A DNA stretch of 64,000 bases, taken from positions 60,437 to 124,436 of the forward strand of contig CAZNDX010000001.1 in assembly GCA_964572035.1 (NCBI GenBank), written 5' to 3'. Below, one piece after another: positions 246 through 16,769 of this stretch. Numbering within the stretch: position 1 is the first letter of the stretch; every line of letters starts with the position of its first letter. The notes beneath the pieces were generated by a model. It saw only the letters and a list, made by a program, of their open reading frames with translations. It made no database searches and had not been told where the DNA came from. A program made the position numbers and the translations under genes. This DNA is from an uncultured Methanosarcinales archaeon (GTDB lineage: Archaea; Nanobdellota; Nanobdellia; Woesearchaeales; ARS49).

Positions 246-285
246 ATGAAAGAATCAAACATTCCAATTAAAAAGAATATCGCAA

Positions 286-750
286 CTACAAACCAAGAAT
301 GTGGAACCCGCCAACGGAAATCGCCAAAACAATCAAACCCTCCACAAAACGCCCCGCAACCAAAGCGGCATAGCTCTTCCATCTTGACAAATCAAAAAAC
401 CACGCGGCAAGAGCACCAGTATAGCCTCCAGTTCCAGGAAACGGAAGGGAGACAAACAAAAGCAAGCCCCACGCGCCATATTTCTCGACATAAGGATGCG
501 CCTTGTGCCTTGTCTTCTCCATAAACTTGTCAAACAAAGAACGATAATGGCCGTGATGCATAAAACGGTGATGAATGTAATCAAGAAAGAAAAAAACAAA
601 GGGAAGCGCGGCAATATTCGCGATAACGCACAAAAAATAAGCAGCTATCGGATGAAGACCAGCGGCCATCGCCACAGGAATACCCCACCTAACTTCCAAA
701 ATCGGCAAAAAGCTGCCAATAACCGCAAGAGCAATCAGCCAGTAATCCAT
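286..750 (-). CDS. small polytopic membrane protein (COG2426 / small multidrug-export-like)
   Basis: 154-aa ORF with 4 hydrophobic segments and a GIP/Pro-rich TM pattern. The coding strand is A-rich. Confidence 0.45.
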   Translation of the reverse strand: MDYWLIALAVIGSFLPILEVRWGIPVAMAAGLHPIAAYFLCVIANIAALPFVFFFLDYIHHRFMHHGHYRSLFDKFMEKTRHKAHPYVEKYGAWGLLLFVSLPFPGTGGYTGALAAWFFDLSRWKSYAALVAGRFVEGLIVLAISVGGFHILGL

Positions 751-1970
751 ACCTTCTTCACCCTCGATTTAACATAATCGTCCTTGAACAAATCCTTAAC
801 AACATGCTCAGGCCTTGTTTCCTCACGCTCAATTTTCGCCCAAACACGGCCGTCTTTCACAAACGTTTTTGAATATCTCTTTTTGAATTCTTTGACAGCA
901 GACTCAATCTTCAACGGAGGACCCATCCAGTCCATAACCTTCGGAAGCTCTCTCGTCTTGAGCAAAAACCACCACTGGCCCTCATCATTACGATTCCAAC
1001 TCCAGCCGGAATCCAAAACAACAAAATCAGACAAATGATTTCTAATAAACTCAAAAGCGCGGACAAACTTGGTGCCGGAAATATCCTCTTTGTCAATAAG
1101 AGACAGAACGCCAACCTTAACAACGTGACCTTTCTTTCTCAACTTCTCAAAATCAATCTCTTTTTCCTCAAAACAATCAAGAGATGGCTTTTTAACGTAA
1201 GATTTCGCAGCTTCAATAAAACGATAAAAATTCTCATCAGTCAAGGCGGCGGCCGCGTTTCGGTTTGGCTGAACGGGATCAACCAATACCAAAGGACCTT
1301 CAGTCTTGCTCTTGTTAAGCACCAGCAAAGCCCTGCCCTTCAACGCGTTGTTGTAATCAAGAACAACCTTAGAACTCCACTTAGTCGCGGCCCTAATGAG
1401 CTTATCAAAACCGCCGTAATAAATCGTCAAAATATCAACAACATGGCCGGAAAAACCGCGAATATAACTCTCAGCGCCATAACACTTCGAGGCTTTGCAA
1501 AACTTTTTCACAAGACGAATGTCATCCTTAAACTTTTTCCCCTTCTTATTTACCCACGCGACGTGCAACGGCGAGAAATCAGTAACATTAACAGCATCCT
1601 TCGCCTTTCTTATGTCAAGAACGGGAACAAGCTCATATTTGACTTCATCCCGCACCCAAAAATAATCACGGCTGCCGTGCAAACGCTCAAACTTAAAAGG
1701 TTTCAAGGCCCGCTCAAGCAAATCGCTAATGTTATGGTCTTTATGCTTAAGATTGAACTTCACGAAAACATCAACATCATAATCGCCGGACAGCCAAGTG
1801 TCCTTCGCGTAACTGCCGCCCAAAACCGCCTTCGCAGCGATTTTATTTTTTTTAAGACTTTTATTGACAGAATCCAAAAACGCCTTAACAGACTTCAAAA
1901 CCTTTGAACGCTCCACCTTGCTCGGAACAATCTTGGACAAAACCTCTTTTCTAACTGAATTTTTCGACAT
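735..1970 (-). CDS. cca: archaeal CCA-adding enzyme (class I tRNA nucleotidyltransferase)
   Basis: 411 aa. It contains a GGSYAKDTWLSGDYDVDVFV nucleotidyltransferase motif (GS...D.D pair) and has length and architecture typical of archaeal CCA enzymes. Confidence 0.85.
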   Translation of the reverse strand: MSKNSVRKEVLSKIVPSKVERSKVLKSVKAFLDSVNKSLKKNKIAAKAVLGGSYAKDTWLSGDYDVDVFVKFNLKHKDHNISDLLERALKPFKFERLHGSRDYFWVRDEVKYELVPVLDIRKAKDAVNVTDFSPLHVAWVNKKGKKFKDDIRLVKKFCKASKCYGAESYIRGFSGHVVDILTIYYGGFDKLIRAATKWSSKVVLDYNNALKGRALLVLNKSKTEGPLVLVDPVQPNRNAAAALTDENFYRFIEAAKSYVKKPSLDCFEEKEIDFEKLRKKGHVVKVGVLSLIDKEDISGTKFVRAFEFIRNHLSDFVVLDSGWSWNRNDEGQWWFLLKTRELPKVMDWMGPPLKIESAVKEFKKRYSKTFVKDGRVWAKIEREETRPEHVVKDLFKDDYVKSRVKKVWITG

Positions 1971-2067
1971 TGAACAAAGATATGGAATATCCCTTTAAAA
2001 AATATGAGGAAAAAAACCATTTGGAGTAGTAACTAAACTTTATAAACACACGACGGATACAACACGT

Positions 2068-3255
2068 ATGATGGACGCGCTGCAAATAACGACATCAATC
2101 GCGGTACTCTTGTTCATAGGACTCATTTGCAGCTGGATAGGAAGGCAAATAAAACTGCCAGACGTTCTTTTGCTGCTTGGAGTCGGAATATTATTTGGGC
2201 ACTTGCAATACAAAGGACTGCCACTAGTGGACTTTCCACCCGCGTTTCTAAGCAGCCTCGCGATATTAGCGCTGGCGATGATAGTATTCGACGGAACCGC
2301 AAGATTACGTCTTCGCGAGCTAGACACGTTCTCATTAAAGGCAGTTAAACTCATAACAATATTCACACTGTTCATACTGATATTTTTCGCAATAGCCGCT
2401 CACTACATACTCGGGCTGGACTTCTGGACAAGCCTTCTTTTCGCGGCGATAATGACAGGAACAGGACCAGAAGCAGTGTTCGCGTTCACCCAAAAACTGC
2501 GAGTGTTCACAATTTTGAAATTGGAGAGCATTTTCAACACGCCGGTCAGCGTCATCCTGCCATTTTTGATACTTGACCTTTCAAAAAACGTGGCAACTGG
2601 AGCGGTAACAGAATTCGCAGAACAACTCGTGCCATTCATACTCGCGCTAGTCGTTGGAATCGGCTCAGGAGTATTCGTCGGAATAATACTGTTCAAAATC
2701 GTCCAAAAAGTATACGCGGACATCTACTCACCACTCGCAGTAATCGTCGCCGCACTTCTGTCATACGTCCTCGCTGAAAACCTAGGAGGAAGCGGAGTCC
2801 TCGCAGTAACAGCGCTCGGAGTATTCTTCGGAAACGTCTACGTAAAAGAAAAAATGACACTATTGGACATAGAATCAGTATTCGCCAAAACACTCCACAT
2901 ACTAGTCTTCATTTTGGCAGGAGTCGTCATTAAACTGCCACTGACAGCGGAATTTTTCATAAAATCAGGACTATTATTCGCAGCGTACCTCGCAATAAGA
3001 TTCATCTGCGTCTATCTGTCATTCAGAGACTTCACAAAAGGAGAGCTCGCAATACTCACACTATGCGCTCCAAAAGGAATCGCGACAGCCGCAGTAATTT
3101 TCATTTTGGCAGTCAGCGGAGCGCCTGACATCGTCGTTGACATGACCTTCGCGTTCGTGATATACAGCATATTCGTCGCGGCAATCGCCAGCTTCATAGT
3201 ATCAAGACACCTAGACCATGAAAACCATTTTGCTAGACACAAGCTTCCTCGTTGA
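2068..3255 (+). CDS. cation:proton (Na+/H+) antiporter, CPA1/NhaP-like
   Basis: 395 aa with about 11 TM segments. The N-terminus IGRQIKLPDVLLLLGVGILFG resembles the Na_H_exchanger family signature. Confidence 0.7.
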   Translation: MMDALQITTSIAVLLFIGLICSWIGRQIKLPDVLLLLGVGILFGHLQYKGLPLVDFPPAFLSSLAILALAMIVFDGTARLRLRELDTFSLKAVKLITIFTLFILIFFAIAAHYILGLDFWTSLLFAAIMTGTGPEAVFAFTQKLRVFTILKLESIFNTPVSVILPFLILDLSKNVATGAVTEFAEQLVPFILALVVGIGSGVFVGIILFKIVQKVYADIYSPLAVIVAALLSYVLAENLGGSGVLAVTALGVFFGNVYVKEKMTLLDIESVFAKTLHILVFILAGVVIKLPLTAEFFIKSGLLFAAYLAIRFICVYLSFRDFTKGELAILTLCAPKGIATAAVIFILAVSGAPDIVVDMTFAFVIYSIFVAAIASFIVSRHLDHENHFARHKLPR

Positions 3256-3604
3256 CTGCGTCAAAAACAAAGTAGACATCTGGCGCGAACTAGACAGAAT
3301 ACTCCCCCATAACTTCATGGTGGGAATACTTGACAGAACAATGGACGAGCTTGACACCATAATCACGACAAAAAAAGGAAAAGAAAGGGATGGAGCAAAA
3401 CTCGCAAAAACAATATTACTAACCAAACACGTCACGATTTACCCAACAGAAGGAGGACATACTGATACCCTGCTTCTTCGAAAAGCCGACGAGAACCACG
3501 TTGTGGCGACAAGCGACGGGGCGCTCAAGAAAAAACTAAAGGCAAAAAAACAAAGCGTCGTGATTTTACGAGGACAGAAAAAACTCGCACTAATTGAAGC
3601 CTAA
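3218..3604 (+). CDS. PIN-domain nuclease, Fcf1/Utp24-like
   Basis: 128 aa. LLDTSFLV... acidic residues are spaced as in archaeal Fcf1-type PIN domains. It overlaps the antiporter 3' end by 38 nt. Confidence 0.5.
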   Translation: MKTILLDTSFLVDCVKNKVDIWRELDRILPHNFMVGILDRTMDELDTIITTKKGKERDGAKLAKTILLTKHVTIYPTEGGHTDTLLLRKADENHVVATSDGALKKKLKAKKQSVVILRGQKKLALIEA

Positions 3605-4287
3605 TAATTCCAATTCAACTTCTTCGCGACTTCCTCAGTCATTCTGGAACGCAATAAGCCGAGAAAATTTTTCTTAAAATAATCCTCCGCCCCAGAAATC
3701 ATGATCTTCTCTGCCCTGCTCAAATGAAGAGAGCAAAAATACTCCAAAGCGGAACGCTCAGCCTCATCAATATAACCCTTGTATGAATTAAGAACAACAT
3801 CAAAAACCTGGCGAGTTAAACTCACTCCCTTAACGCAATCTTTCGCGCACTTTCTGGCCCTGTCGACAAGACTCGCAGCGATAGTGGTCGCCTGATAGGA
3901 AGAAACAAGAGTATCCAACGAAGCGAGCTTAAACGGATCTTCATCAGGAAAAATAAACAAAGGATCAACAACACGATCAATAACAAACCAAGGCTCATAC
4001 GAAAAAGAAGTCTTTAACGAACCGCTTTCATTCACAGAATCCACCAAAAGCTTGAAACCAGCAGAATAATAGTCCCTACCAATAGGAACGCACAAACAAA
4101 AATCAGGCCAGTCAAACTTTTTCAACTCCTCAACCTGGCGCTTATAGCCATTAAGCTCGTTCACAACAGAAGGAAGCTTAACCTTGGGCCTGACAACGGA
4201 ATCATACAAATCAGACCCCAACTTCCTTGAAATGTCAATATTCAACTCCTTAATGTGCCACTTCTTAGCGTTGCGATTGCCGGACAT
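3601..4287 (-). CDS. hypothetical protein
   Basis: 228-aa ORF with A-rich sense strand and no recognisable motif. A TATA-like ttaatata at 4305-4312 sits upstream on its strand. Confidence 0.4.
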   Translation of the reverse strand: MSGNRNAKKWHIKELNIDISRKLGSDLYDSVVRPKVKLPSVVNELNGYKRQVEELKKFDWPDFCLCVPIGRDYYSAGFKLLVDSVNESGSLKTSFSYEPWFVIDRVVDPLFIFPDEDPFKLASLDTLVSSYQATTIAASLVDRARKCAKDCVKGVSLTRQVFDVVLNSYKGYIDEAERSALEYFCSLHLSRAEKIMISGAEDYFKKNFLGLLRSRMTEEVAKKLNWNY

Positions 4288-4350
4288 GGAAAAGTTGGAT
4301 GAATGGTTGGTTAATATAGTTTGTTAGTGGGAAAAACAATAAAACCATAA

Positions 4351-4379
4351 TGAGGGGGCTCTCGGTCGCCGCCCCCTCA
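4351..4379. promoter_or_regulatory. GC-rich hairpin (9-bp stem tgagggggc/gccccctca) in the intergenic region upstream of rpoE
   Basis: Perfect inverted repeat read directly from the sequence. It is one of two GGGGGC-containing hairpins in the leader region. Confidence 0.4.
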
Positions 4380-4401
4380 TACTCCCCGCGACAGCGCAAC
4401 C

Positions 4402-4409
4402 TTTATAAA
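4402..4409 (+). promoter_or_regulatory. TATA box (tttataaa) for the rpoE-spt4-rps24e-rps27ae operon
   Basis: Canonical archaeal TATA octamer about 65-80 nt upstream of the candidate start codons 4473/4488. Confidence 0.5.
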
Positions 4410-4439
4410 CCCCCTTCAGGGAATATCGACTATAATGAG

Positions 4440-4470
4440 ATAGCGGGGGCGTCTAATTGCAGCCCGCTAT
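4440..4470 (+). promoter_or_regulatory. 5' leader hairpin (atagcggg...cccgctat, 8-bp stem) immediately before the rpoE start codon
   Basis: Inverted repeat located between the predicted TSS (about 4435) and the start codon. Confidence 0.4.
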
Positions 4471-4487
4471 TGATGGAGACCAAAAAA

Positions 4488-5066
4488 ATGTTTTACAAAA
4501 CACAAGTCAAAGACCACATCAGAGTACCGCCTCGATTCTTCCAATACAGCGTAGAAGAAGCAGTCTTGCGCGCAGTAAAAGAAAAATACGACGGCCTAAT
4601 CGACCCAGCCCTTGGAGTCGTAATCGACGTATCAGACGTCAAAGAAGTAGGGGAAGGCATCATAATCCACGGAGACGGAGCAACATACTACGACACCACG
4701 TTCAACTTACTGTGCTTCGTTCCAGAACTGCACGAAGTATGCGGCGGAAAAATCAAAGACATCGCAGACTTCGGAGCGTTCATAACACTAGGACCAATTG
4801 ACGGCATGATACACGTCTCCCAAACAATGGACGACTTCGTAACATTCGCCAAAGAAAAAGTGTTAACCGGAAGGGACAGCAAGAAAACCCTCAAAGTAGG
4901 AGACTCCTGCGTCGCAAGAGTCATCGCAGTATCATTCAAAGACGTCACCAATCCAAAGATTGGTTTGACAATGAGACAGCCAGGACTTGGAAAAACAGAC
5001 TGGATGAAAGAAGAGCCAAAAGCCGCGGCTTCCGAAGCCGACAAGAAGGTGAAGAAAGATGAGTAA
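4488..5066 (+). CDS. rpoE: DNA-directed RNA polymerase subunit E' (Rpo7)
   Basis: MFYKTQVKDHIRVPP... N-terminal domain with an S1 domain. An in-frame ATG at 4473 is an alternative start. The track ORF begins at 4350 but includes the promoter hairpins, so it is trimmed here. It is followed by spt4, S24e and S27ae as in the conserved archaeal cluster. Confidence 0.85.
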   Translation: MFYKTQVKDHIRVPPRFFQYSVEEAVLRAVKEKYDGLIDPALGVVIDVSDVKEVGEGIIIHGDGATYYDTTFNLLCFVPELHEVCGGKIKDIADFGAFITLGPIDGMIHVSQTMDDFVTFAKEKVLTGRDSKKTLKVGDSCVARVIAVSFKDVTNPKIGLTMRQPGLGKTDWMKEEPKAAASEADKKVKKDE

Positions 5067-5247
5067 AAAACACGCCTGCAAACTCTGCAAAGCCCTATAT
5101 GAGGGAAGCGAATGCCCACTATGCAAAGCTAAACAGCCAATACAGGGCTGGAAAGGAAGAATCAACATCATTGACGCGAAACAAAGCGACATAGCCAAAA
5201 AAATCGGCGCGGAACACGACGCCGAATACGCAATCAAGGTGAACTAA
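5059..5247 (+). CDS. spt4: transcription elongation factor Spt4 / RNAP subunit E''
   Basis: 62 aa with a zinc ribbon CKLC...CPLC. Conserved position after rpoE. Confidence 0.85.
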   Translation: MSKKHACKLCKALYEGSECPLCKAKQPIQGWKGRINIIDAKQSDIAKKIGAEHDAEYAIKVN

Positions 5248-5529
5248 ATGGACATACAAATAAAAGAAAACAAACTATTACACCGAAAAGAAGTCACAGG
5301 AACACTAGCGTTCACTGGAGCCACACCAAGCAACAAAGACGTTCAAGCAAAACTGGCTGAACACTTCAAGGTAACTCCAGAACAAGTCGCTGTAAAACAC
5401 ATTTACACAGACTTCGGGAAACCGTTCGCGAAATACGAAGCGAACGTTTACGACTCAAAAGAATTCTTGGACAAACTAGAGCCAAAGAAGAAAGAACCAA
5501 AAGCGGCGGCAGCGCCAGCAGCGAAGTGA
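5248..5529 (+). CDS. rps24e: 30S ribosomal protein S24e
   Basis: 93 aa. LHRKEV...TPS.KDV.AKLA motif typical of S24e. Alanine-rich tail. Confidence 0.85.
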   Translation: MDIQIKENKLLHRKEVTGTLAFTGATPSNKDVQAKLAEHFKVTPEQVAVKHIYTDFGKPFAKYEANVYDSKEFLDKLEPKKKEPKAAAAPAAK

Positions 5530-5726
5530 TAACAATGGCAGAAAAGAAAGAAGTCAAAAAAGGACCGCCAACAACCGGCGCGTGGAAAAGATACAAAATC
5601 TCAGGCGACAAAATAGAAAAACTAAACAAAAGCTGTCCAAAATGCGGACCAGGATTCCTCTTGGCAAACCACAAGGACAGAAAAGTCTGCGGAGCCTGCG
5701 GATACGCCGAGTTTACGAAGAAGTAA
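5526..5726 (+). CDS. rps27ae: 30S ribosomal protein S27ae
   Basis: 66 aa. CPKCGPGFLLANHKDRKVCGACGY zinc ribbon characteristic of S27a/S27ae. ATGA overlap with S24e. Confidence 0.85.
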   Translation: MITMAEKKEVKKGPPTTGAWKRYKISGDKIEKLNKSCPKCGPGFLLANHKDRKVCGACGYAEFTKK

Positions 5727-5761
5727 ATATTTTTTATTATCTAATTCAATAAAAGGGGAAA

Positions 5762-6124
5762 ATGAACGGATACATAACAAACATAGAAAAAGAAACTTTG
5801 GATAATAAAAATTACAGAAAAGTTCTCTACACAGCAAAACACAGCCAACTGGTCGTAATGAGTCTCAAGCCAGGGGAAGAAATAGGCGAGGAAACACACC
5901 ACCTAGACCAGTTCATACGAATAGAACAGGGAGAGGCAAAAGCGCTGTTGAATGGAAAAGAACACAAACTGAAGGCAGACTGGGCAGTGATAATACCCGC
6001 AGGAACAAAACACAACATAATAAACACCGGCAAGAAGGAACTCAAATTATACTCAATATATTCACCTCCAGAACACAAACCGGGAACAATACACAAAACA
6101 AAAGCTGACGAGCCAGGACATTAG
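5762..6124 (+). CDS. cupin-domain protein
   Basis: 120 aa. G(X)5HXH...E...G...H pattern (PGEEIGEETHHLDQ...IIPAGTKHNIIN) of the cupin_2 fold. Confidence 0.7.
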   Translation: MNGYITNIEKETLDNKNYRKVLYTAKHSQLVVMSLKPGEEIGEETHHLDQFIRIEQGEAKALLNGKEHKLKADWAVIIPAGTKHNIINTGKKELKLYSIYSPPEHKPGTIHKTKADEPGH

Positions 6125-6189
6125 AATTCTGACTTATTAAAAAAAATCAAAATTTTCTTTTTCATCCTGAAAAATACTAAAGATAAAAG

Positions 6190-6400
6190 AAAACAGTGAA
6201 AAGAGCAGGTGTTGGTCTTTCGCTGTGCGCCTTGACACAACGCCTTTTTTGCTGCAGGGAAAGTTGCGCTCGCGTTATCCCGCGCTCATCTTTCCACTGT
6301 TTCTTTCATAATACCAAAGGGGTTGGTGCACTATAACAACATTTGGAACGAACAGTACGGCTTGTCGTATTCCCAGTCATCTATCTCCATAAATTTTTAG
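6190..6400 (+). ncRNA. candidate structured non-coding RNA (unassigned)
   Basis: About 360 bp with no ORF on either strand in an otherwise tightly packed genome. It has a locally GC-rich core (cgctcgcg / cccgcgctc hairpins). Motifs GGGAAAG and ACAGUACGGCUUG are faintly reminiscent of RNase P RNA CR-I/CR-V, but the match is weak. Confidence 0.2.
6208..6250 (+). terminator. hairpin (ggtgttg...caacgcc, 7 bp with a G-U pair) followed by T6; possible terminator or 5' element of a structured RNA
   Basis: Stem-loop plus oligo-T read from the sequence. It lies 84 nt downstream of the cupin gene stop. Confidence 0.3.
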
Positions 6401-6485
6401 AAAGCGCCGCGCATTAAATACTCTTAAGAACCAAAAATTCACAACACTTAAAAGAAGAAAATTAAGAAAATTAAGATAAAAAAAA

Positions 6486-6818
6486 TTAGACAACAGGCTG
6501 TCTTATCGAGCCAAACGGAGCGGCCTGACCAACAACGTTGTTGTGCGCGCCATACATAATCTGACAACGATTGTTGCACCATGAATCAGTCATCTGGCCA
6601 GCGCCGGCGTGAGCCGCGATAAACTGAACCTGAGACTGACCGTAATACTGAGTTCCAAGGCCGTGATCATACGGAGTATAAGGAGTAATCTGACACCAGC
6701 AACCGCGCTGAGTGGTCATTACTGCTCCAGTAGGATCCGATGACACAAGTCCTATAGCGCTGACGACGCCCACCACGAGAACCGCGGAGAGCACAAAAAT
6801 AGCATGGGAGTTTTCCAT
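6486..6818 (-). CDS. small secreted cysteine-containing protein (signal peptide plus about 85-aa mature part)
   Basis: Start placed at MENSHAIFVLSAVLVVGVVSAIGLVSS (signal/TM). The mature region has CWC...C..RC. The gene is markedly GC-richer than its surroundings. Confidence 0.45.
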   Translation of the reverse strand: MENSHAIFVLSAVLVVGVVSAIGLVSSDPTGAVMTTQRGCWCQITPYTPYDHGLGTQYYGQSQVQFIAAHAGAGQMTDSWCNNRCQIMYGAHNNVVGQAAPFGSIRQPVV

Positions 6819-6897
6819 AGCAACATGAAGACAAGTTTTACTTATTAAAGTTGGGTACGACAAAAGCTATATAATTCTTGAAAAAAACTCAAAATGA

Positions 6898-7257
6898 ATG
6901 GGCAAATACGACCACATTAATTTTAGACCGCCACTTGCTGTAAGAAAAGCGGCGAAAAGAGGGCTGGAACTGCGCAAAAAATTCCACAGAGGCGGAATCA
7001 GCACACAAAAAGCGGGCAAACTAGGAATAGGGTCAGGAATAGAAAGAGCAGTAACACTCGCGAGAGGACTTCACGTCTCACCATCAACAGCAAAAAGAAT
7101 GAACAATTATTTCAACCGCCACCAGAAAGACAGAAAACCAAATTGGGGAAACCCCGCAAAACCCACAAACGGGTACATCGCCTGGCTGTTGTGGGGCGGA
7201 GATCCAGGAAGAGCATGGGCAAGAAAATTAGTCAGGCAAATGAAGGCAGCGGACTAA
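6898..7257 (+). CDS. hypothetical basic protein, translationally coupled to the chaB-like gene
   Basis: 119 aa, lysine/arginine-rich. Its stop TAA overlaps the downstream ATG (TAATG). Confidence 0.45.
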   Translation: MGKYDHINFRPPLAVRKAAKRGLELRKKFHRGGISTQKAGKLGIGSGIERAVTLARGLHVSPSTAKRMNNYFNRHQKDRKPNWGNPAKPTNGYIAWLLWGGDPGRAWARKLVRQMKAAD

Positions 7258-7454
7258 TGCCATACCGCTCAAACACAAAATTGCCGAAACGAATAAGAGA
7301 CAATTTACCACAAGGGGCTCAAACTATTTTTAGAAAAGCGTACAATAACGCATCAAAACAATATCCCACAACAGAAATTCGCAACAAAGTCGCCTGGAGC
7401 GCAGTAAAGCGAGTTTACAAGAAAAAAAGGGAGAAATGGGTTAGAAAAACTTAG
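7257..7454 (+). CDS. chaB: ChaB-family protein
   Basis: MPYRSNTKLPKRIRDNLPQGAQTIFRKAYNNASKQY...KVAWSAVKRVYKKKREKW matches the ChaB consensus (MPY..LP..V...LP.HAQ.IY..AFN.A...KVAW.AVK..Y...KW). The track ORF (7143) is N-terminally over-extended. Confidence 0.75.
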   Translation: MPYRSNTKLPKRIRDNLPQGAQTIFRKAYNNASKQYPTTEIRNKVAWSAVKRVYKKKREKWVRKT

Positions 7455-7500
7455 AAACCCGAAAAATTTATATTACAAACACGGTCTTTTTCTAAAAGGG

Positions 7501-8031
7501 ATGGTACAGGAAGGAATAGATTACAAGATATTACACGATTCGTTATACAAAGCGGCAGACATACTAGAATCCTTTGCTAAATGTGATCTGGATGAAGTGG
7601 CAGATTACGACGATTTACAATCACGAGCTAATTACCTTTTTCTCTCCAAATACGTAAAAGAATCACTGACAATAGTTGGAAACGAACCTGAAAAATGGAA
7701 ATACATCACTGAGCAGTATCTGAAACCTCCAAGCTACAACAATCGAACAAGAAATGAGCTCCCAAAAAAATGCAAAGAGGAAGTTATACAAAGAGATGGA
7801 AACAAATGCAGAGTGTGCGGAAAAGAACAATCACTATCAATACACCACATATTGCCTCATTCATTAAACGGTCTGGACTCCCCTGAAAACTTAATGCAAT
7901 TATGTCAAGAATGCCACAAAAAAGTAAGCAAAAAAGACCCACTTGATATTCTTATAAACGCGGCAATAAAAGGAAAAGCCTCCGGGGGGAATTGCACCCC
8001 CGACCTGCTGATTACAAGTCAGCCGCAATAG
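7501..8031 (+). CDS. HNH endonuclease domain protein
   Basis: The C-terminal region CRVCGK...SIHHILPHSLNGLDSPENLMQLCQECH is a complete HNH motif. The 3' end reads into the tRNA-like element. Confidence 0.7.
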   Translation: MVQEGIDYKILHDSLYKAADILESFAKCDLDEVADYDDLQSRANYLFLSKYVKESLTIVGNEPEKWKYITEQYLKPPSYNNRTRNELPKKCKEEVIQRDGNKCRVCGKEQSLSIHHILPHSLNGLDSPENLMQLCQECHKKVSKKDPLDILINAAIKGKASGGNCTPDLLITSQPQ

Positions 8032-8049
8032 CTACTATGCTACGGAGGC
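7978..8049 (-). pseudogene. degenerate tRNA-like element (anticodon arm reads UGU/Thr-like); possible integration-site remnant
   Basis: The minus strand folds as acceptor GCCUCCG/CGGAGGC (7 bp), anticodon stem GCUGA/UCAGC with loop CUUGUAA, and T-arm GGGGG-UGCAAUU-CCCCC. The D-arm lacks GG and the T-loop has G at position 55, so it is unlikely to be functional. It is followed by T-tract. Confidence 0.4.
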
Positions 8050-8161
8050 AATAGCAACAAAAATCTTGGAACACCTTTAAAAAAGTATCTCTAACATCAC
8101 TTAAAAGTGAACATACTCGCTTAAATATTAAGGATACATATGGAATTATTCTAGTGGTGAG

Positions 8162-10945
8162 GTGAGAATGGCAAATAAAGCAATTACATTGACTCCTCTG
8201 ATTTTTATTCTAGTGGTGTTAACGTTCGTTAATGTTCAGGGAGCGGAATTAAGTCAAGAAAAAATTTTCCAGTTTGACCATGCGCCCACCCAACAAGATT
8301 ACGACAATCTCTTAATTCGAGGATGCACGGTAACATATGAACCGAGACACTTAAACCTTCTAATCGCGACATGCACTGAACAAGAAGGCGCGATGACGAT
8401 GCAGCAAACACCGCAGATCGGACAAGTTTGGGAAAATGAAATGTTCTCATCGACATTAAGCGACGGCGCCCAAATAATAGAGGCAATTCAGGCATGGAAT
8501 TCAAGTTATAACGGAAGCGGAATTACAATAGGGATAATGGATACAGGCATTAACACAAGCCACTCCGCGCTGGCAGGACAATTTGACGGCGAAATTGACT
8601 TTTACGATGGAGGAACAGCAGAAGACCTGTGCAACCACGGAACGCCCGTCGCAGGAATACTCGCTTCACTAAACGAAACATATAGGGGAATAGCGCACGG
8701 GGCGAGATTTTATAATTTGAAAACGGGACAAATAGTTACCGGCTCTTGCGGCCACTCCAGTTCGGACATAATAGAAGCAATTGACTACTCAGTTGAAAAT
8801 GGAATAGATATCATTTCAATGTCAATAGGAGGAGCAGTTAGCAACTGCGACCTTTCAATAACTGCGCTTTACGTTAATGAAACAGTATATCAAGATGGAA
8901 TTCCGATAGTAATAGGTGCAGGAAACGGAGGATCAAGCAACAACAGCATATGGTCTCCGGGCTGCGCGCAAAACGCAATAACTGTGGGCTCAGTGAACAA
9001 AGACAGGACTTTGTCAAGTTTTTCAAGCAGAGGACCCGTCAACAATTACAACAAGCCGGATGTTTTGGCTCCCGGAAACAGCATAGCCAGTACGCATCTT
9101 GACGGAACATTCGCGGGAGGATTTAGCGGCACAAGCATGGCAACTCCTTTCGCCGCAGGAGTTGTCGCATTAATTCTTCAGGCAAACCCCGAACTTAACT
9201 GGACACAAATAAAAGAAATTCTCGCCAACAGCTCAACAGATTTGGGATACGCAGAAAATGAACAAGGGGCAGGACTTGTCAACGCCAGCAGGGCAGTTGA
9301 GATCGCTCTAACCGTAAACACGACAAAACCTCCAAAAACAACAGCAACAATCACAAAAACAGACAACACAAACCCGCTCAACATATCAAATTCAACGATA
9401 TTGAAATATCAAATAAATTTCACAATCCAAAACGGAACAGCGTACAACACGATAATTGAGGAAAATTACCCGGCAAATATAATATTCATTTCCTCGACTC
9501 CAATCCCAACGACCGGCGAAAATATCTGGGCAGCAGGCAATCTAACATCGGGACAAACATACCAAATAAACATAACTGTGAATGTAAGCCAAAACCTTCA
9601 AAATGGAACAATCCTCACAAACAAAGTCAACGCGACGTTCACGAATTCCACAAACGGACTGGAAACAAAAGAATACATTAAAAACACGACAATAACAAGG
9701 GACCAAACATTCGAGGATTACCCCGGAATATTGATTCTCGCGCAAAACACAAACGGGCCAACATATTATGACATTTACGACAATCAAACATTCGGCGCGC
9801 CTCAAAATTTTGAAACAAACGGAACACCCGCATGGATATTATCTGAATCAACCGAAACCAGAAACGAAACCGCAATAGCCATACAAAACAGCGACAACGC
9901 GATACACTTCTACATCCACACGCCTCAAACGAACGTAACTGACCCAATTTTATTGACGCAAGACTCGGGAGGCTCTCAAAGAAGATTTGACCTTGAGTAC
10001 GACAAAAACGGAAACGCGCTCATAGTTTTCGCAACAGGGAACAGCACGCCATCATACAAAATATGGGACGGAAACCAATTCATATCAAGCGGAAGCCTCC
10101 CTCAAGACGCATGCACAAGCAACACGGCATGGGTGCAAACCGCGGCATCCCCTGTTGATGAAACAGTGATAGCGATATACTCCGACACAAGCGGAAGATA
10201 TTGCGCCCAAGTTTGGAACGGAAGCCAGTGGGGACAAAGCAAACATTTCGACACCGATGCCGGCACCGCAACAGAAAAATTCAGCCTAGAATTTGAAGAA
10301 ACAAGCGGACACGCGCTCGCAGTATTTGAAAGCCCAACACAAGGAATCGTGAGCTACTGCGAATGGACTGGAATTTGGTGTTCTTCAAACACAGACCTGT
10401 CGGACAGAGGAAGCCAAAACGACTGGGTAAGACTTTCTTCCGAACCAACAAGCGACAGAATAATTCTTGGAACATATCAGAGCGGAAACGCAGATATTGA
10501 TGTAGTTGAATGGAACGGAAGCAGATTTGGAACATGGAAAACAATAGATCCAAGCGTTGAAACAGGAGGCGACAGAATATTTGACGTAAGCTACATAGGA
10601 AACACAGGAAAGGCAATGATAGTTTACACTGACAGCAACCAAAAAGTCCCATCGTTCTCAACATGCGAAAATTCCAACACCTGTTTTGGCGGCACATGGA
10701 GCTCCAACAGCTTAACAACAAGCAGCGGAAATAACTGCGGAGAAAACTCCGATTTGGATTTCGTAAAACTAACTCAAAAACCAAACACAAACCAAATTTT
10801 GCTGACCGGATTAAGCCAAACCCAGCACTATAAGTGCGCCCAAGCCTACAACGGAACAACATGGCAAACATGGACTAGCAATCTCGGAAGCGGAAGCGCA
10901 GATCTTGCGGCGGAAGACATTAGCGCGACATTTGACGCCGACTAA
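8162..10945 (+). CDS. secreted subtilisin-like serine protease (S8) with a long N-glycosylation-sequon-rich C-terminal extension
   Basis: Signal peptide, then the catalytic triad motifs IMDTGI (Asp), CNHGTPVAGI (His), GTSMATPFAAG (Ser). The C-terminal 550 aa are packed with N-x-S/T sequons. Confidence 0.85.
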   Translation: MRMANKAITLTPLIFILVVLTFVNVQGAELSQEKIFQFDHAPTQQDYDNLLIRGCTVTYEPRHLNLLIATCTEQEGAMTMQQTPQIGQVWENEMFSSTLSDGAQIIEAIQAWNSSYNGSGITIGIMDTGINTSHSALAGQFDGEIDFYDGGTAEDLCNHGTPVAGILASLNETYRGIAHGARFYNLKTGQIVTGSCGHSSSDIIEAIDYSVENGIDIISMSIGGAVSNCDLSITALYVNETVYQDGIPIVIGAGNGGSSNNSIWSPGCAQNAITVGSVNKDRTLSSFSSRGPVNNYNKPDVLAPGNSIASTHLDGTFAGGFSGTSMATPFAAGVVALILQANPELNWTQIKEILANSSTDLGYAENEQGAGLVNASRAVEIALTVNTTKPPKTTATITKTDNTNPLNISNSTILKYQINFTIQNGTAYNTIIEENYPANIIFISSTPIPTTGENIWAAGNLTSGQTYQINITVNVSQNLQNGTILTNKVNATFTNSTNGLETKEYIKNTTITRDQTFEDYPGILILAQNTNGPTYYDIYDNQTFGAPQNFETNGTPAWILSESTETRNETAIAIQNSDNAIHFYIHTPQTNVTDPILLTQDSGGSQRRFDLEYDKNGNALIVFATGNSTPSYKIWDGNQFISSGSLPQDACTSNTAWVQTAASPVDETVIAIYSDTSGRYCAQVWNGSQWGQSKHFDTDAGTATEKFSLEFEETSGHALAVFESPTQGIVSYCEWTGIWCSSNTDLSDRGSQNDWVRLSSEPTSDRIILGTYQSGNADIDVVEWNGSRFGTWKTIDPSVETGGDRIFDVSYIGNTGKAMIVYTDSNQKVPSFSTCENSNTCFGGTWSSNSLTTSSGNNCGENSDLDFVKLTQKPNTNQILLTGLSQTQHYKCAQAYNGTTWQTWTSNLGSGSADLAAEDISATFDAD

Positions 10946-11097
10946 TCTTATTACAAAATAAGTATGACGAAGTATTATATACTGGAAGTTCTAGCGAGAA
11001 TAAAATTATAAAAAGAGAACAATTTAAACTACATAAAAAGTAAAAAATAACTACAAAATAAGTAAAATTACTTAAAATGTAGCAAAGAGGTGAATGA

Positions 11098-11475
11098 TTG
11101 AAGCCAGACCAACACTTCGCGCCAATAACCATTTTCAACGGAAAACTAAGCCCTGGCGAGGCGCTCGTAAAACACTTACGGGAACACCACAACCTGCGGT
11201 TCACAGACATCGCTAAACTGCTAAACAGAGACCAAAGAGGAATCTGGTGCGCGTACAAGGCATCGCAAAAAAAAGAGCCAGAACACATTCCTTTTGACCC
11301 GCACCACATATTGTTCCCTGTGAACATGTTTTCTGACCGAAACTTCAGCATACTGGAACACATCGTGATTCATCTGCGGGAAAAATACACCGTAAAAGAA
11401 ATAGCGGAACTTCTAAACAAACACCCAAGCACAATAAGCACTATTCAGACGAGAGCAAGGAGGAAACAGCCTTGA
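11098..11475 (+). CDS. DNA-binding protein with two tandem HTH_10 / sigma-70 region-4-like helix-turn-helix repeats
   Basis: TTG start with AGAGG SD 7 nt upstream. Repeat 1 is LSPGEALVKHLREHHNLRFTDIAKLLNRDQRGIWCAYKAS and repeat 2 is FSILEHIVIHLREKYTVKEIAELLNKHPSTISTIQTRARRK. Its stop overlaps the TTG start of the giant surface protein gene. Confidence 0.55.
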   Translation: MKPDQHFAPITIFNGKLSPGEALVKHLREHHNLRFTDIAKLLNRDQRGIWCAYKASQKKEPEHIPFDPHHILFPVNMFSDRNFSILEHIVIHLREKYTVKEIAELLNKHPSTISTIQTRARRKQP

Positions 11476-14400
11476 GAATTCTGCCAATTTTACTGATATT
11501 GGCACTCGCTACGGCCACAGCAGGAGTTGACATATCAGAAATACTTGGCAAAAAATTGGAAGTAAAAAATGAAGAAAACAAAAATGAGAAACTAATTTCA
11601 GATACATTGTCAAAATTCACAGAACGATTAAAGGATAAAAACGAAATATCCCTAATTGACAAAACCGGAAAAGCGCAAATAAAACAAACATCCAGAAATT
11701 GGACGATCAACGCAACAATTGAAAATCACCCGATCAGAAAAATACAACTCAACAACGTAAGAGGAAAAAACAACACTCTAAAGATAGACACCCCAATAAT
11801 AAAAGACTCAAGACAGTCATACGCGATAGACCCCACGGAAATCAACTTCACCAACGGAGAAATAGAAGTAATCGCGAAAGGGGAGCACCTTTTCAAATGC
11901 CCCGGATGGAACTACACGACGGCAATCTGCGAAGAAACCTGCAAATTGAACAATGACCAAGAAGAAGTATGCCTTGAATGGTTTTACCAAAAAGAAATCA
12001 CTCCCGGACAACCATACACAATAGAGATAGCCCCAAATGACCCCGCGTTTTATGAAACATCCGCATCATCTGACGTGTCCGCAAGCCCCTATAACAGCAC
12101 AACAATACTAATCGCGTTCACCGATGTAACCCAAACCGACGTGGGATTTAAAATAATGGACACAAACGGGACTGAAATAGTAAATACAACACTTGTTGAC
12201 ACAACGGTTGACACAAGATCAAGAGTTGACTCAGCATGGATAAACTCAACACACTTCGTAATATTCTGGGCGGACACGCTTGAAAACGACGGAACATTTC
12301 AAATATGGAACTTCAACGGAACCCACGCGACAAGCGCGACAACTCCAATAGACGCAGACACAAGCATGGGAGGAATAAATGTTGACGTATCAATAGCCAT
12401 GCTAAACGACAGATTCGTAACCTGCTACGCGAACGACGGAGACTCTGACGCCGATTTCAGGGCTTTCGACTTTTTGGGAACACAAGTAGTTGGAGAAACC
12501 GCTGTTGACGGAAACATACTTCCAAGCGCACCCCTCCAAAACCAAATCGACTGCTCAGCGACGAGCAACAACAGATGGACTTATTTCACTTATGACGACG
12601 CTACTGTCAACGACGCGACATATTACATTCAAAGCGAAACAGGCGCAAGCATAGTAGGGGCAGTCGATATAGACACGGACGTCGGAGAGGAAGGACAAGT
12701 GACAGTCATAGGACTTAACGAAAACTTGTCAGGACTTGTTTGGTATGATTCAACAGACCAAGACATAACAATCGCGGGAGTCAACAACTCAGGAACAACA
12801 ATATTCGGACCAACCGACGCAGACACGGAAGCCGGGACTTCAAGCAGAGTCGCGGCGACAGGACTCAGGCAAGACAAAACATCAACCGACCAACTCTTCG
12901 CGTTCGCCTGGTACGACTCAGCAGACACCACAATAAAAGCGGCCGTTTATAGGACAAACGGGACACAATTCACCGCGCCATTCAACGTAACAACAACTCC
13001 AAACAGCACATATCAAATCATAGACATAACCGGAAGAGATAGCATAACAGGACAAGAAATATGCCCCGGCACGTTCATCGTCGCGTTCAGCAACTCAACT
13101 GGAAGAGGGGAATTCCTTGGCTTCTGGGCGAACAGTACACCATGGAACGGAACGTGCGTTGAAAACGAGCCACCCTCAATAAAAAACGCAACAGTTGTTC
13201 CTTCAATAGTGAACATAGGAAACAACGTGTGTTTCATTTTGAACGTTACAGACGCGGACGGTATAACGAACGTCACGGCAATCATAGACCCCCCACTTGG
13301 AGCCAACCAAACTCTGACTTTGAACGAAGGGTTATCATGCAACAGCATCCCAGGGGATAATTTATGGACAAACATTTACTTCCCAATAATTGACGCGACA
13401 CACATTTGGGGAACTGTAAACATAACAGACGGATTAGGGGTAACAACAACTCACGCGATTAATGTTAGTTTCGATGTATTACTCCCTTCGATATCAATTG
13501 AGGGAATTTACCCTCCAACTTTCGCAGCGTATAACGACGGAACAAACTTCAACGTCAGCCTGATTAATGTCTCGGATAACGTTTATACGACACAAACAAT
13601 ACCCGCAAATGTAAACACTCGAACATTCTTCAACTGGACACAGTTCAACTTAACCGACAAACAAATAAAAAACGCAGTTATTATAGTTGAGCATTCATAC
13701 TCGAACTCAACCAATCTCAACATAAGCCTTGACCAATTCAACGGAAGCGAATGGATCAGCAGATGCACACTCAGCGCAAGCCAAACTGACACAACCCACT
13801 TTTGCAACATAACCGTATTTGTAAATTCAACAACATTAAACAATCTTCAACTGAGATTGAACGCGAGCGCGACTTCAAATAGAACACAAAATGTGGACTA
13901 TATTGTTCTCAACCTAACCACAAACACGCCGCCAACAATCAACCACGACATAAACCAAACATACCTTTTGAACCAAACGGCGCTTCTAAGACTCAACGTC
14001 ACAGACCTCGAAAATGACACAATAATCAGAGTGAACGCCACAGTCACATCTCCAAGTGGAGCAACACTATTTTACAACTTCACAAACACAAACGGAACAT
14101 TATGGGACGCGACGCATGCCGACATGAAACTAAAAGGAATCTACAACATAACCATAAGGGCAACAGACAACCAAGGCAGCACAAGAGTAATTCAAACATT
14201 CTTCACAAGAAGAGCGTTTAACGTTGTCGACATAATAGAGCCAAAAGAAGAAGGAGTCCCAACGCTTCAGAATTTCAGCTTCCACAATTACACCGCCCAG
14301 ATAATCTCAAACCAATCAAACATACTTGCCCTATCCATAAACCTCACGGGAGCAGAAGTTAAACAAATTAACATAACTGGATACAACGAAAGCTCCCCAT

Positions 14401-16655
14401 ACAGCATAATTGAACTTAAAGACGATGAAGAAAACACGCCAAAAACAGTATCATTCACAGGATATCAAATAAACCCTGAAGGCCTTGACTTCACGAACGC
14501 GACACTTCTCCTGAACGCGAGCGGAAACCACTCATTATGGAAATGCGCGAACTACAACTTCACGGAAGAAAAATGCTTTGAAGGAAACTGGATAGAACAC
14601 CGAAACATAACAAAAGGCCAACTTTACACCGTAAATATAAACGCAACGGACCCCGCTTTTATCGAAACAACGGCGGCAGGAGACGTCGCAATGGACCCAC
14701 TAAACAACACAATATTCCTAATAGGATTTGTTGACATAGCTCAAACAGAGGTCTCATTTGAAATACTAAACACGAACGGAACAATAATCATTAATACAAC
14801 AGACGTGGACACAACAGTAACAACAAACGCAAGAGTTGACGTCAACTGGATAAACAGCAGCCACTTCGTAATATTCTGGGCAGACACAAACGATAACGAC
14901 GCGACATTCCAAATATTTAGCTTCAACGGAACAGCAACAACAAGCGTCGCAGGACCAATAGATGTCGACACATCAATGGGAAGCGCAAATGTTGACGTAT
15001 CACTCGCAATGCTAGACAACAGATTCGTAACGTGCTACGCGAACGACGCAGACTCTGACGCGGACTTTCAAGCATACAATTTCGCCGGAACACAAGTGGT
15101 TGTTGAAACCGCAGTGGATGGAAATATACAACCAAGCTCGCCGCTTCAAAATCTAATAGACTGCTCGGCAACAAACAACACCAGATGGACATATTTCACA
15201 TTTGATGACTCGACAGTCAACGACGCGACATACTACATTCTCGACAACACAGGAGGAACAATAGTGGGCGCGACAGACATAGACACAGACGTAGGAGAAA
15301 CAGGACAAGTAGCAGTAATTGGACTTAACAACAACCTTTCAGGGCTGGTATGGTATGACAGCACGGACCAAGACATATCAATCGCAGGAGTCAACAATTC
15401 AGGAACAACCACCTTCGGACCAACAGACGTCGACACAGGAGCCGGAACAGAAAGCAGAGTAGCAGGAGCAGCAGTCCGACAAAACAAAACATCAACCGAC
15501 CAACTATTCGCGTTCGCCTGGTGGTCACAAAGTAACGGAACGGTAAAGGCGTCAATTTACAGAACAAACGGAACGCAGTTCACGGCGCCGTTCAACGTAA
15601 GCGCATCGATAAACTCAACATTCCCAATAATAGACATAACCGGAAGGGACAACATAACAGGACAAGAAATATGCCCCGGCGCATTTTTAGTCGCTTTCAG
15701 TAACGGATCAACCGGCCAATTTGTCGGATACTGGGTGAACGGAACACCATGGAATGGAACATGCCCTATTGATTTAATAGCAACTCAACTAAACGCGAGC
15801 GACTTAAACCCTGATGAACTGGAAAACGTAACATTCAACGGAAGCATTTTCAACAACGGAACAAGCACCGCGTTTAATTTTATCTCAGCTATCGTGGATG
15901 GAAACTGCACTACTGGAACAATGATACAAAACAGAACAGTCAATCTCTCGGCGGGACAAAACACAACCCTAAACTTCAGCTGGAGCGCGACACCAGTGGG
16001 ACCGCACAACATAAGCTTTTGCGTCAACTACATAAACAATGTTCTGGAGGACAATTACACCAACAACAACATAACAATAACAATAAACGTCAAAGCGTAC
16101 AACGATTACTTCGGCAATATAACAGGAAATCTGACTCTTGACACAAACACAAACAACACTGAATACGACTGGAGATTCAATGACTCAGGAAACATCATCT
16201 TCACAAACTCACAAGTAACTGTGAACTTCACCGCGCTATACGCACTAGGAAGAAACACAACAGGCGGAATAGCGGTTAACGATTTTCTTGAAGCCGACCA
16301 AGCGCTGAACATGACAGGATTCAACGACAGCATACAAACACTATGGTCGACAAACGCAAGCCAGCCAAGACAAACAACAAACTTCACGGTGCGCGGAAGA
16401 ACAATAGAAAATGTGCCGTACATCAACAGCACAAACACAAGCAACTTCATAACAGGCATTTTGTGGCAATCTGTAAACAGCACAAGCAGAGAATTCAACG
16501 CGACGCAAAAGCAACCATTGCTGTTTGTAACAATGATAAACCGCAACCAAACAGGATTCTACGGAAGATATGATTATGAGGCGCACGTACCTGTGCTTCT
16601 GCGCTCCTATAATAGTACGTCCAACGCTTTGCAATATTTTGTTGAACTGAAATAA
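11472..16655 (+). CDS. giant secreted surface glycoprotein candidate (1727 aa) with a large internal duplication
   Basis: TTG start preceded by AGGAGG. Sec signal MRILPILLILALATATAG. There are more than 150 N-x-S/T sequons and acidic DxDxD motifs. Two modules of about 400 aa are roughly 75% identical. Confidence 0.8.
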   Translation: MRILPILLILALATATAGVDISEILGKKLEVKNEENKNEKLISDTLSKFTERLKDKNEISLIDKTGKAQIKQTSRNWTINATIENHPIRKIQLNNVRGKNNTLKIDTPIIKDSRQSYAIDPTEINFTNGEIEVIAKGEHLFKCPGWNYTTAICEETCKLNNDQEEVCLEWFYQKEITPGQPYTIEIAPNDPAFYETSASSDVSASPYNSTTILIAFTDVTQTDVGFKIMDTNGTEIVNTTLVDTTVDTRSRVDSAWINSTHFVIFWADTLENDGTFQIWNFNGTHATSATTPIDADTSMGGINVDVSIAMLNDRFVTCYANDGDSDADFRAFDFLGTQVVGETAVDGNILPSAPLQNQIDCSATSNNRWTYFTYDDATVNDATYYIQSETGASIVGAVDIDTDVGEEGQVTVIGLNENLSGLVWYDSTDQDITIAGVNNSGTTIFGPTDADTEAGTSSRVAATGLRQDKTSTDQLFAFAWYDSADTTIKAAVYRTNGTQFTAPFNVTTTPNSTYQIIDITGRDSITGQEICPGTFIVAFSNSTGRGEFLGFWANSTPWNGTCVENEPPSIKNATVVPSIVNIGNNVCFILNVTDADGITNVTAIIDPPLGANQTLTLNEGLSCNSIPGDNLWTNIYFPIIDATHIWGTVNITDGLGVTTTHAINVSFDVLLPSISIEGIYPPTFAAYNDGTNFNVSLINVSDNVYTTQTIPANVNTRTFFNWTQFNLTDKQIKNAVIIVEHSYSNSTNLNISLDQFNGSEWISRCTLSASQTDTTHFCNITVFVNSTTLNNLQLRLNASATSNRTQNVDYIVLNLTTNTPPTINHDINQTYLLNQTALLRLNVTDLENDTIIRVNATVTSPSGATLFYNFTNTNGTLWDATHADMKLKGIYNITIRATDNQGSTRVIQTFFTRRAFNVVDIIEPKEEGVPTLQNFSFHNYTAQIISNQSNILALSINLTGAEVKQINITGYNESSPYSIIELKDDEENTPKTVSFTGYQINPEGLDFTNATLLLNASGNHSLWKCANYNFTEEKCFEGNWIEHRNITKGQLYTVNINATDPAFIETTAAGDVAMDPLNNTIFLIGFVDIAQTEVSFEILNTNGTIIINTTDVDTTVTTNARVDVNWINSSHFVIFWADTNDNDATFQIFSFNGTATTSVAGPIDVDTSMGSANVDVSLAMLDNRFVTCYANDADSDADFQAYNFAGTQVVVETAVDGNIQPSSPLQNLIDCSATNNTRWTYFTFDDSTVNDATYYILDNTGGTIVGATDIDTDVGETGQVAVIGLNNNLSGLVWYDSTDQDISIAGVNNSGTTTFGPTDVDTGAGTESRVAGAAVRQNKTSTDQLFAFAWWSQSNGTVKASIYRTNGTQFTAPFNVSASINSTFPIIDITGRDNITGQEICPGAFLVAFSNGSTGQFVGYWVNGTPWNGTCPIDLIATQLNASDLNPDELENVTFNGSIFNNGTSTAFNFISAIVDGNCTTGTMIQNRTVNLSAGQNTTLNFSWSATPVGPHNISFCVNYINNVLEDNYTNNNITITINVKAYNDYFGNITGNLTLDTNTNNTEYDWRFNDSGNIIFTNSQVTVNFTALYALGRNTTGGIAVNDFLEADQALNMTGFNDSIQTLWSTNASQPRQTTNFTVRGRTIENVPYINSTNTSNFITGILWQSVNSTSREFNATQKQPLLFVTMINRNQTGFYGRYDYEAHVPVLLRSYNSTSNALQYFVELK
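11893..13157 (+). repeat. intragenic direct repeat, copy 1 (about 1.26 kb)
   Basis: Protein FKCPGWNYT...TPWNGTC. It shares identical nucleotide runs of at least 20 nt (e.g. cacttcgtaatattctgggc) with copy 2. Confidence 0.7.
14538..15764 (+). repeat. intragenic direct repeat, copy 2 (about 1.23 kb)
   Basis: Protein WKCANYNFT...TPWNGTC. About 75% aa identity to copy 1, offset about 2.6 kb. Confidence 0.7.
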
Positions 16656-16746: not shown

Positions 16747-16769
16747 TTAAACAAAACGGCAATAGAAGA

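Follow-up and report, generated by a model that had tools for sequence, protein, structure and literature searches.

A strain-variable slot beside a tRNA-Thr gene in a Woesearchaeota chromosome, probably held by a homing-endonuclease-like gene

The stretch studied here, positions 6486-8050 of a window of 64,000 nucleotides (nt) from contig CAZNDX010000001.1, lies in a chromosome segment of a member of the Woesearchaeota (DPANN archaea), the closest named relatives of the local proteins being found in Candidatus Woesearchaeota genome bins. It carries a gene for a small cysteine-containing protein, a gene for a very basic protein of 119 residues (p119), genes for a ChaB-family protein and an HNH nuclease, and, on the opposite strand, a transfer RNA gene, tRNA-Thr(UGU). 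A first-pass annotation had described the whole as a foreign islet. We consider it probable that native and inserted DNA are instead combined in this part of a Woesearchaeota chromosome, and that the inserted part includes a homing-endonuclease-like gene. The contigs from related strains and species used for comparison (L-numbers) were obtained by exact-protein look-up and pattern scans, and all are short-read metagenome assemblies (Logan or JGI); one of them, L001, is identical to the window over positions 4364-18031.

Native genes, inserted genes and an intact tRNA

The small cysteine gene (6486-6818, minus strand) encodes a membrane-anchored or secreted protein of 110 residues with a hydrophobic N-terminal segment (Kyte-Doolittle maximum 2.83, centred at residue 16) and four cysteines, all four of which are kept in relatives, in line with its first description as a small secreted Cys-containing protein. 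Homologs occupy the same position in L002/L003, L100, L183 and L186, and the ratio of nonsynonymous to synonymous substitution rates (dN/dS) is 0.11-0.15. The protein has no family match in Pfam, PHROG, NCBIfam or PADLOC, and a search for viral relatives found none. Divergently transcribed from this gene is p119 (6898-7257, plus strand), whose product is helical, has an isoelectric point of 11.6, belongs to an unnamed family and evolves at a dN/dS of 0.07-0.08. The RpoE'-Spt4-S24e-S27ae operon (4350-5726) lies just upstream of the studied stretch, and both genes are found downstream of the same operon in L002/L003, L100 and L183/L184. In L186 they follow a cupin gene, as they do in the window, the contig starting too late to include the operon, and in the more distant L019 the operon is located ~2.4 kb upstream of p119 and the small cysteine homolog is missing. 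Judged by synteny in close relatives and by purifying selection, the two genes are native to this chromosome.

The p119 family comprises 234 matches, among which copies from Woesearchaeota and Pacearchaeota genomes are 65-75% identical; relatives at a greater distance (42-58% identical) are plentiful in bacteria and occur on at least 590 IMG/VR contigs. The viral relatives sit in the head module, near genes for the portal, terminase and head-maturation protease, and some are fused into large proteins; p119 itself matches PHROG 2859 (E 6.9e-14). Five lineages have the gene as a neighbour of tRNA-Thr(UGU), namely the window type, L098/L099, L100/L101, L102 and L183, and the adjacency is therefore old. 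In other Woesearchaeota (L009-L018, L023, L098), p119 relatives have TspO as a neighbour in 11 of the 19 loci compared, and further neighbours include the UV-damage endonuclease UvdE, UvrD, flavodoxin, DnaJ and a DUF523/DUF1722 protein, a neighbourhood that suggests a role in light, ultraviolet (UV) or oxidative stress for this phage-derived basic protein. Locus L030 (WJJK01000240.1, binned as Altiarchaeales), 10 kb in length, combines a p119 relative with 11 tRNA genes and probably stems from a large phage, its contig having been assigned to an archaeal genome by mistake.

The stop codon of p119, TAA, overlaps the start codon of the ChaB gene (7257-7454, plus strand) as TAATG at position 7257, and the two genes are translationally coupled, as had been noted from the outset. 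The encoded protein of 65 residues (isoelectric point 11.2) matches PF06150 over profile positions 1-60 of 60 (E 6.4e-18, 65.6 bits against a cut-off of 27) and is similar to Escherichia coli ChaB (PDB 1SG7, E 1.2e-8). ChaB had been taken as a sign of foreign origin, for which we find no support: its best relatives (63-67% identical) include chromosomal genes of Woesearchaeota, one of which lies beside genes for SOD, MsrA, MsrB and FMN reductase. We also considered p119-ChaB as a conserved module and rejected the idea, as jackhmmer and hmmsearch runs over 182 loci found ChaB beside p119 only in the window's own lineage. The ChaB open reading frame (ORF) went uncalled in the publicly available annotation of L001, L005 and L006, contigs identical to the window, and the protein collection has no entry with its exact sequence. 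The gene is thus unannotated, probably because an overlapping ORF of 103 residues at 7143-7454 masks it.

The HNH gene (7501-8031, plus strand; 176 residues) is a single-copy orphan, with no second copy found in the window. Its predicted product was correctly recognized as an HNH endonuclease at first sight: PF01844 is matched over residues 103-144 (E 7.4e-11, 42.5 bits against a cut-off of 21.4), and the CxxC...HH...N...CxxCH motif, comprising catalytic and zinc-binding residues, is intact (C103/C106, H114-H115, N122/N129, C135/C138-H139). The HNH domain ends at about nt 7960; beyond it the ORF continues for 22 codons through the tRNA terminator and along the tRNA antisense strand, and takes its stop codon from within the tRNA gene. 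The overlap with the opposite-strand tRNA, also recorded in the initial description, amounts to 55 nt, the last 18 codons corresponding to tRNA antisense strand; the tRNA gene is one base longer than first given, spanning 7977-8049 rather than 7978-8049. A word-indexed search of 5.8 billion proteins returned only the HNH protein itself, as did, below 1e-30, an exhaustive HMMER search of 1.84 billion representatives. Among the best HMMER matches listed, nearly all span just the core (about residues 76-153), and none of those listed reaches the N-terminal 22 residues or the extreme C-terminus. No relatives were found in IMG/VR. Membership in a defence system was considered and set aside, PADLOC yielding weak matches to the generic HNH core only and NCBIfam likewise matching the generic core. 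Nuclease genes abutting other tRNAs of the window were also sought: the two candidate ORFs, 24689-25927 and 40044-41306, are dissimilar to either of the nuclease proteins discussed here and, by inspection, resemble a glycosyltransferase and a TruD-type protein, respectively.

The element downstream, taken initially for a degenerate tRNA-like cloverleaf, is, judged by pairing and conservation, a functional gene for tRNA-Thr(UGU) whose elbow variant is specific to the lineage. It occupies 7977-8049 on the minus strand, convergent with p119, lacks an intron, is called by ARAGORN as tRNA-Thr(tgt) and, in the covariance-model check that had been recommended, scores 65.5 bits against Rfam RF00005 (gathering score 29; model positions 1-71 of 71). 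Only two of the seven tRNAs of the window score higher. The peculiarities that had been listed are all present: the anticodon is UGU, the D-loop, AGUAGCUA, is devoid of GG (no G18-G19), the T-loop, UGCAAUU, has G55, and U13-U22 is a mismatch. However, the ortholog of L098/L099 (L098 8472-8543; 84% identical) has the same type of D-loop, the same mismatch and again G55 in its T-loop (UGCAAAU); conserved as it is in this diverged gene, the deviation does not indicate decay. Between these two distinct sequences, four stem pairs are changed on both sides and one shows a wobble change, and stem pairing holds in 95% of cells as against 44-55% with the partners slid. G55, the missing G18-G19 and U13-U22 are thus kept across two species despite 11 other changes in the tRNA, and the elbow variant may represent a co-varying change at the contact between D-loop and T-loop. 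In a rough survey of other tRNAs on the comparison loci, all those in correct register start the T-loop with TTC.

Intact copies of the same gene exist elsewhere, as the first-pass annotation had suggested checking. A metagenome scan for further orthologs gave one, L092, plus unrelated matches: here an identical tRNA gene stands in an unrelated context together with ~45 nt of its upstream region, window positions 7974-8093 aligning to L092 584-702 with 87.7% identity and all other flanks being different. The upstream (promoter) region, 8050-8093 on the minus strand, is conserved with the gene in other contexts, with the same sequence in L183, and contains a putative A/T-rich, TATA-like box. 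Altogether, the tRNA-Thr gene occurs in four contexts other than that of the window, with or without a 40-nt intron; exons 100% identical to the window gene, interrupted by this intron in the anticodon loop, are found in L100 (1931-2045), L101 and L183 (~11769-11881). The intron is polymorphic for presence and absence within one population. Run without its intron option, ARAGORN misses the intron-bearing gene and miscalls the L183 copy as tRNA-Val.

Taken as a whole, the stretch does not stand out in GC content. The GC content of 6486-8050 is 0.432, compared with a mean of 0.434 for the window, and falls at the 47th percentile among equal-sized windows; as first delimited, the islet is not rich in GC. 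The sole GC-rich part is the ORF of the small cysteine protein, which at 0.526 (0.52-0.53) tops the 62 ORFs of the reference set and yet is syntenic. At third codon positions (GC3), by contrast with a mean of 0.451 (standard deviation 0.037) for the 62 ORFs, ChaB is at 0.369 (2nd percentile) and HNH, at 0.364, is lowest, whereas the synonymous codon choice of both genes is typical for the window (54th-59th percentile); the reference ORFs were chosen by a crude greedy selection, so that percentiles are only approximate. Hence the proposed comparison of windowed GC and codon usage gave a divided answer, with the whole stretch at the window mean, the GC3 of ChaB and HNH low and their codon choice typical, and the composition cue that had been read by eye pointed at the wrong genes. 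Of the foreign islet, what survives is the ChaB-HNH part, which is strain-specific, and not the small cysteine protein and p119, which are native and syntenic.

Alleles of the slot and a tract of near-identity

Comparison of related strains delimits a strain-specific insertion, 7254-7976 (plus strand), which carries ChaB and HNH and extends for ~0.72 kb of AT-rich DNA from the p119 stop codon to the 3' end of the tRNA. Homology to the window ends at 7253 in L100, L101 and L186 and at 7242 in L183, a few codons before the p119 stop, and resumes at 7966-7974, at the T-run of the tRNA terminator and the 3' end of the gene. L186, for example, is 97% identical to the window over 5762-7253 and then differs. 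Alleles without ChaB-HNH, sought at the suggestion of the earlier description as empty sites in relatives, were directly observed in L186, L100/L101, L098/L099 and L183/L184.

Four types of allele can be distinguished. In allele A (the window and L001-L007, including L002/L003), the slot holds ChaB and HNH, and the tRNA-Thr gene, on the minus strand, has no intron. In allele B (L100, L101 and L186), the slot holds a 22-nt copy of the tRNA 5' end and a spacer, followed by the tRNA gene on the plus strand, with an intron in L100/L101; the spacer is 96 nt long in L100/L101, and the L186 contig ends within it, before the tRNA is reached. The 22-nt copy, at L100 1814-1835 and L101 777-798, lies 116 nt upstream of the gene, and the same fragment with a 1-nt insertion is present at the 3' end of L186. 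Allele C (L183, L184 and L185, the last ending inside the gene) contains instead a gene for a protein of 431 residues, the stop codon of which abuts the 3' end of a minus-strand tRNA gene with an intron (seen in L183). The C-terminal 130 residues of this protein match PHROG 559 ('HNH endonuclease', 1.8e-18), and the same domain also matches PHROG 9084 ('homing endonuclease', 2.1e-12); for the L183 protein, searches of Pfam, NCBIfam and PDB sequences gave no match, leaving the PHROG families only. Finally, allele D (L098 and L099) is empty, with ~100 nt between p119 and an intron-less minus-strand tRNA gene and a 13-nt repeat of the tRNA 3' end (L098 8421-8433) located 50 nt downstream of the tRNA. 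The C-terminus of p119 is 2-5 residues shorter in allele A than in the other alleles, which fits an insertion that replaced the last codons. The tRNA gene is found in both orientations relative to p119 among the strains, and, given the related strains with partial tRNA copies, tRNA-Thr is a recombination hot spot; the partial copies and the two orientations look like scars of past recombination at this gene.

L002 and L003, allele A strains otherwise diverged from the window, share with it a tract of near-identity, 7231-8592, in which lie the insertion, the tRNA and the initial 430 nt of the gene that follows, for an S8 peptidase. Between the window and L002, only 4 of the 1,362 nt of the tract differ, and none between 7293 and 8376, whereas 92 of 771 columns (12%) differ in the left flank and 176 of 791 (22%) in the right flank. 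L003 shows the same pattern. The tract begins at the left edge of the insertion and runs through the tRNA.

Proposed homing and its alternatives

These observations are best accommodated, in our view, by a recombination hot spot beside the tRNA gene with a slot filled by a homing-endonuclease-like selfish gene, a reading that we hold with more confidence than doubt. Under this scenario, the lineage of the window would have gained an AT-rich segment of ~0.72 kb between the stop codon of p119 and the 3' end of the tRNA. The insertion would have replaced the last codons of p119, brought ChaB into translational coupling with it and left the HNH ORF without a stop codon of its own, so that this ORF now extends over 55 nt of tRNA antisense strand. 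The HNH gene would be a free-standing homing-endonuclease-like selfish gene residing in the hot spot; its enzyme would cut an HNH-less allele in or near the tRNA-Thr region, and repair from an HNH-bearing copy would transfer the gene together with adjacent DNA. Such co-copying of adjacent DNA during homing repair would explain the 1.36-kb tract of near-identity in diverged strains. The identities of the genes, the integrity of the tRNA, the polymorphism of the slot with its alternative occupants, the base composition and the tract of near-identity are observed; that insertion rather than loss is the direction of events, and that the HNH protein has nuclease activity and homes, we infer. A more detailed version is speculative: HNH as an active free-standing homing endonuclease that targets rival alleles in their tRNA-Thr(UGU) region, perhaps in the form with the intron. 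Homing would then exchange the slot and the tRNA allele alike, with the intron being lost, and would set the gene in competition for the slot with a second, unrelated endonuclease gene. We give this version little credence as a whole.

Several observations weigh against the preferred scenario. Other near-identical blocks exist between the same strains, such as 8960-9259 in the comparison with L003; ordinary recombination is thus frequent, the tract could reflect ordinary homologous recombination in a mosaic population, and it is compatible with homing without being proof of it. The case for insertion over loss depends on a single outgroup (L098/L099), the base composition and the shorter C-terminus of p119. 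The HNH protein has no known cleavage site, and neither a second copy nor a relative of its gene was found that would show mobility. ChaB has chromosomal relatives in Woesearchaeota and need not have travelled with HNH, and among the alleles observed the tRNA intron and a nuclease gene show no correlation in their occurrence. In addition, the comparison contigs, being short-read metagenome assemblies, could be chimeric. Should the allele differences and the near-identical tract as a whole be artefacts of this kind, with contigs joined from co-occurring strains, mosaic identity would indeed be the expected outcome of strain-level chimeras; yet each of the allele types A to D was recovered independently from at least two samples, type A from several runs, and the junction positions are reproducible, making this explanation highly improbable.

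The same frequent homologous recombination, visible in the mosaic identity blocks elsewhere, would suit an account in which no homing takes place and ChaB and HNH are ordinary ancestral accessory genes, the former making a stress pair with p119 and the latter serving housekeeping or defence, which other strains lost or replaced by deletion or recombination. The SOD, MsrA/B and FMN reductase genes beside a chromosomal Woesearchaeota relative of ChaB and the neighbours of p119 relatives (TspO, UvdE, UvrD and flavodoxin) speak for it, as does the typical codon choice of both genes. However, an HNH gene of long residence sits poorly with the lack of any full-length relative in the 5.8 billion proteins and 1.84 billion representatives searched, with a GC3 that is the lowest in the window and with PADLOC matches that go no further than the generic HNH core; moreover, L183/L184 have another endonuclease gene in this slot, and the outgroup allele is empty. 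We therefore regard ancestral accessory genes as an unlikely explanation. The proposal made originally, an element or provirus, now decayed, that integrated by means of an integrase with tRNA-Thr as attachment (att) site and later lost its integrase and the far att repeat, appears quite improbable, even if parts of it stand. The 3' end of a tRNA is the usual side for tRNA-targeted integration, and it is this end that the strain-specific insertion abuts; partial tRNA copies occur in L100/L101 and L186 (5' end) and in L098 (3' end), the tRNA is present in both orientations relative to p119, and the p119 family is abundant in phages. On the other hand, no integrase or recombinase is among the Pfam families on record for the called genes corresponding to window positions ~4,400-18,000 (from L001), the homologous L183 genes up- and downstream are likewise without an integrase family, and the ORFs of 6486-8031 were scanned directly. 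A repeat search on positions 1-20000 found no repeat involving the tRNA; a scan of 5000-12000 showed no match of at least 9 nt to the tRNA at either junction and no partial tRNA repeat; and IMG/VR, scanned for exact copies of the 3' half of the tRNA, its 5' 21 nt and the L100 spacer, returned nothing. Furthermore, the insert measures just 0.72 kb, half of the stretch, p119 and the small cysteine protein, is native, and the tRNA is intact.

Surroundings of the locus and known systems

Several features around the locus vary among the strains. The gene for the secreted S8 peptidase (8162-10945) is highly diverged and mosaic past its first 400 nt (8563-9450), with 63-100% identity per 100 nt; the mosaic alternates between L002 and L003, and the whole gene is missing in L100. 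On the other side, the cupin gene (5762-6124, within a cassette at 5745-6135) is present in L186 and absent in L100 and L183, and its place is taken by a GNAT acetyltransferase and AlaE in L002/L003. The cupin gene and the small cysteine gene are convergent, and between them lies a non-coding block, 6183-6381 (core 6183-6335), that is 94-100% identical in five strains, compared with 76-92% for the flanking genes. Its only ORF is broken by a 1-nt indel in L002/L003, its folding z-score is only -1.5 to -2.0, and no Rfam match was obtained even at E up to 10. The block is a candidate small RNA. Identification as RNase P RNA, raised by a resemblance to CR-I/CR-V motifs, was rejected: Rfam gave no match, and the L183 copy alters the supposed CR-V, which is merely a hairpin loop.

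For the annotation of this chromosome, the analysis removes a false lead, the tRNA being genuine and the islet not rich in GC. As an example of a hot spot next to a tRNA gene, the locus is clean and small; it belongs to an uncultivated DPANN archaeon and shows at least four alleles of the slot, for which two unrelated endonuclease genes apparently compete. A variable slot next to a tRNA with selfish nuclease genes is of a kind already known, and the finding is in this respect fairly ordinary. If it is true that HNH homes, the phage-style behaviour of free-standing homing endonucleases beside tRNA genes would extend to archaeal chromosomes. Specialists may value, without major surprise, the elbow variant conserved in the tRNA (G55, no G18-G19), the fixation in Woesearchaeota of a protein family from phage head modules beside UV and oxidative-stress genes, and the ultra-conserved ~150-200 nt of non-coding DNA.

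Each part of the locus has known counterparts. The window ChaB resembles that of E. coli (PF06150) in its full-length domain match and in being a small basic protein, and differs in that ~10 residues of a loop present in 1SG7 are missing and in that its gene is coupled to p119 rather than set in the chaABC context of known ChaB. Likewise, p119 shares sequence homology with PHROG 2859 and its unnamed phage head-module relatives, but the Woesearchaeota copies are stand-alone chromosomal genes of ~120 residues with no phage genes around them, and, unlike the phage relatives, they adjoin TspO, UvdE, UvrD or a tRNA. With tRNA-targeted integrative elements and genomic islands of the tyrosine-integrase type, the locus has in common foreign DNA at a tRNA 3' end and partial tRNA copies in related strains; it differs from them in that the window shows no integrase or att direct repeat, the insert measures 0.72 kb and no virus or plasmid matching it was found. 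The nearest parallel described is SegB, a free-standing homing endonuclease located among the tRNA genes of phages (T4/T6), within which it cuts, with co-conversion of flanking DNA (PMC13096335, citing Brok-Volchanskaya 2008). The likeness covers a nuclease ORF placed outside any intron or intein, in an intergenic slot directly beside a tRNA gene; a presence/absence polymorphism between close genomes, with a different endonuclease gene in the same slot of another strain; and a tract of near-identity over the gene and adjacent DNA, as co-conversion would give. The setting is a phage in one case and an archaeal (DPANN) chromosome in the other, and SegB is a GIY-YIG enzyme unrelated in sequence to the HNH protein; the resemblance is one of apparent behaviour only.

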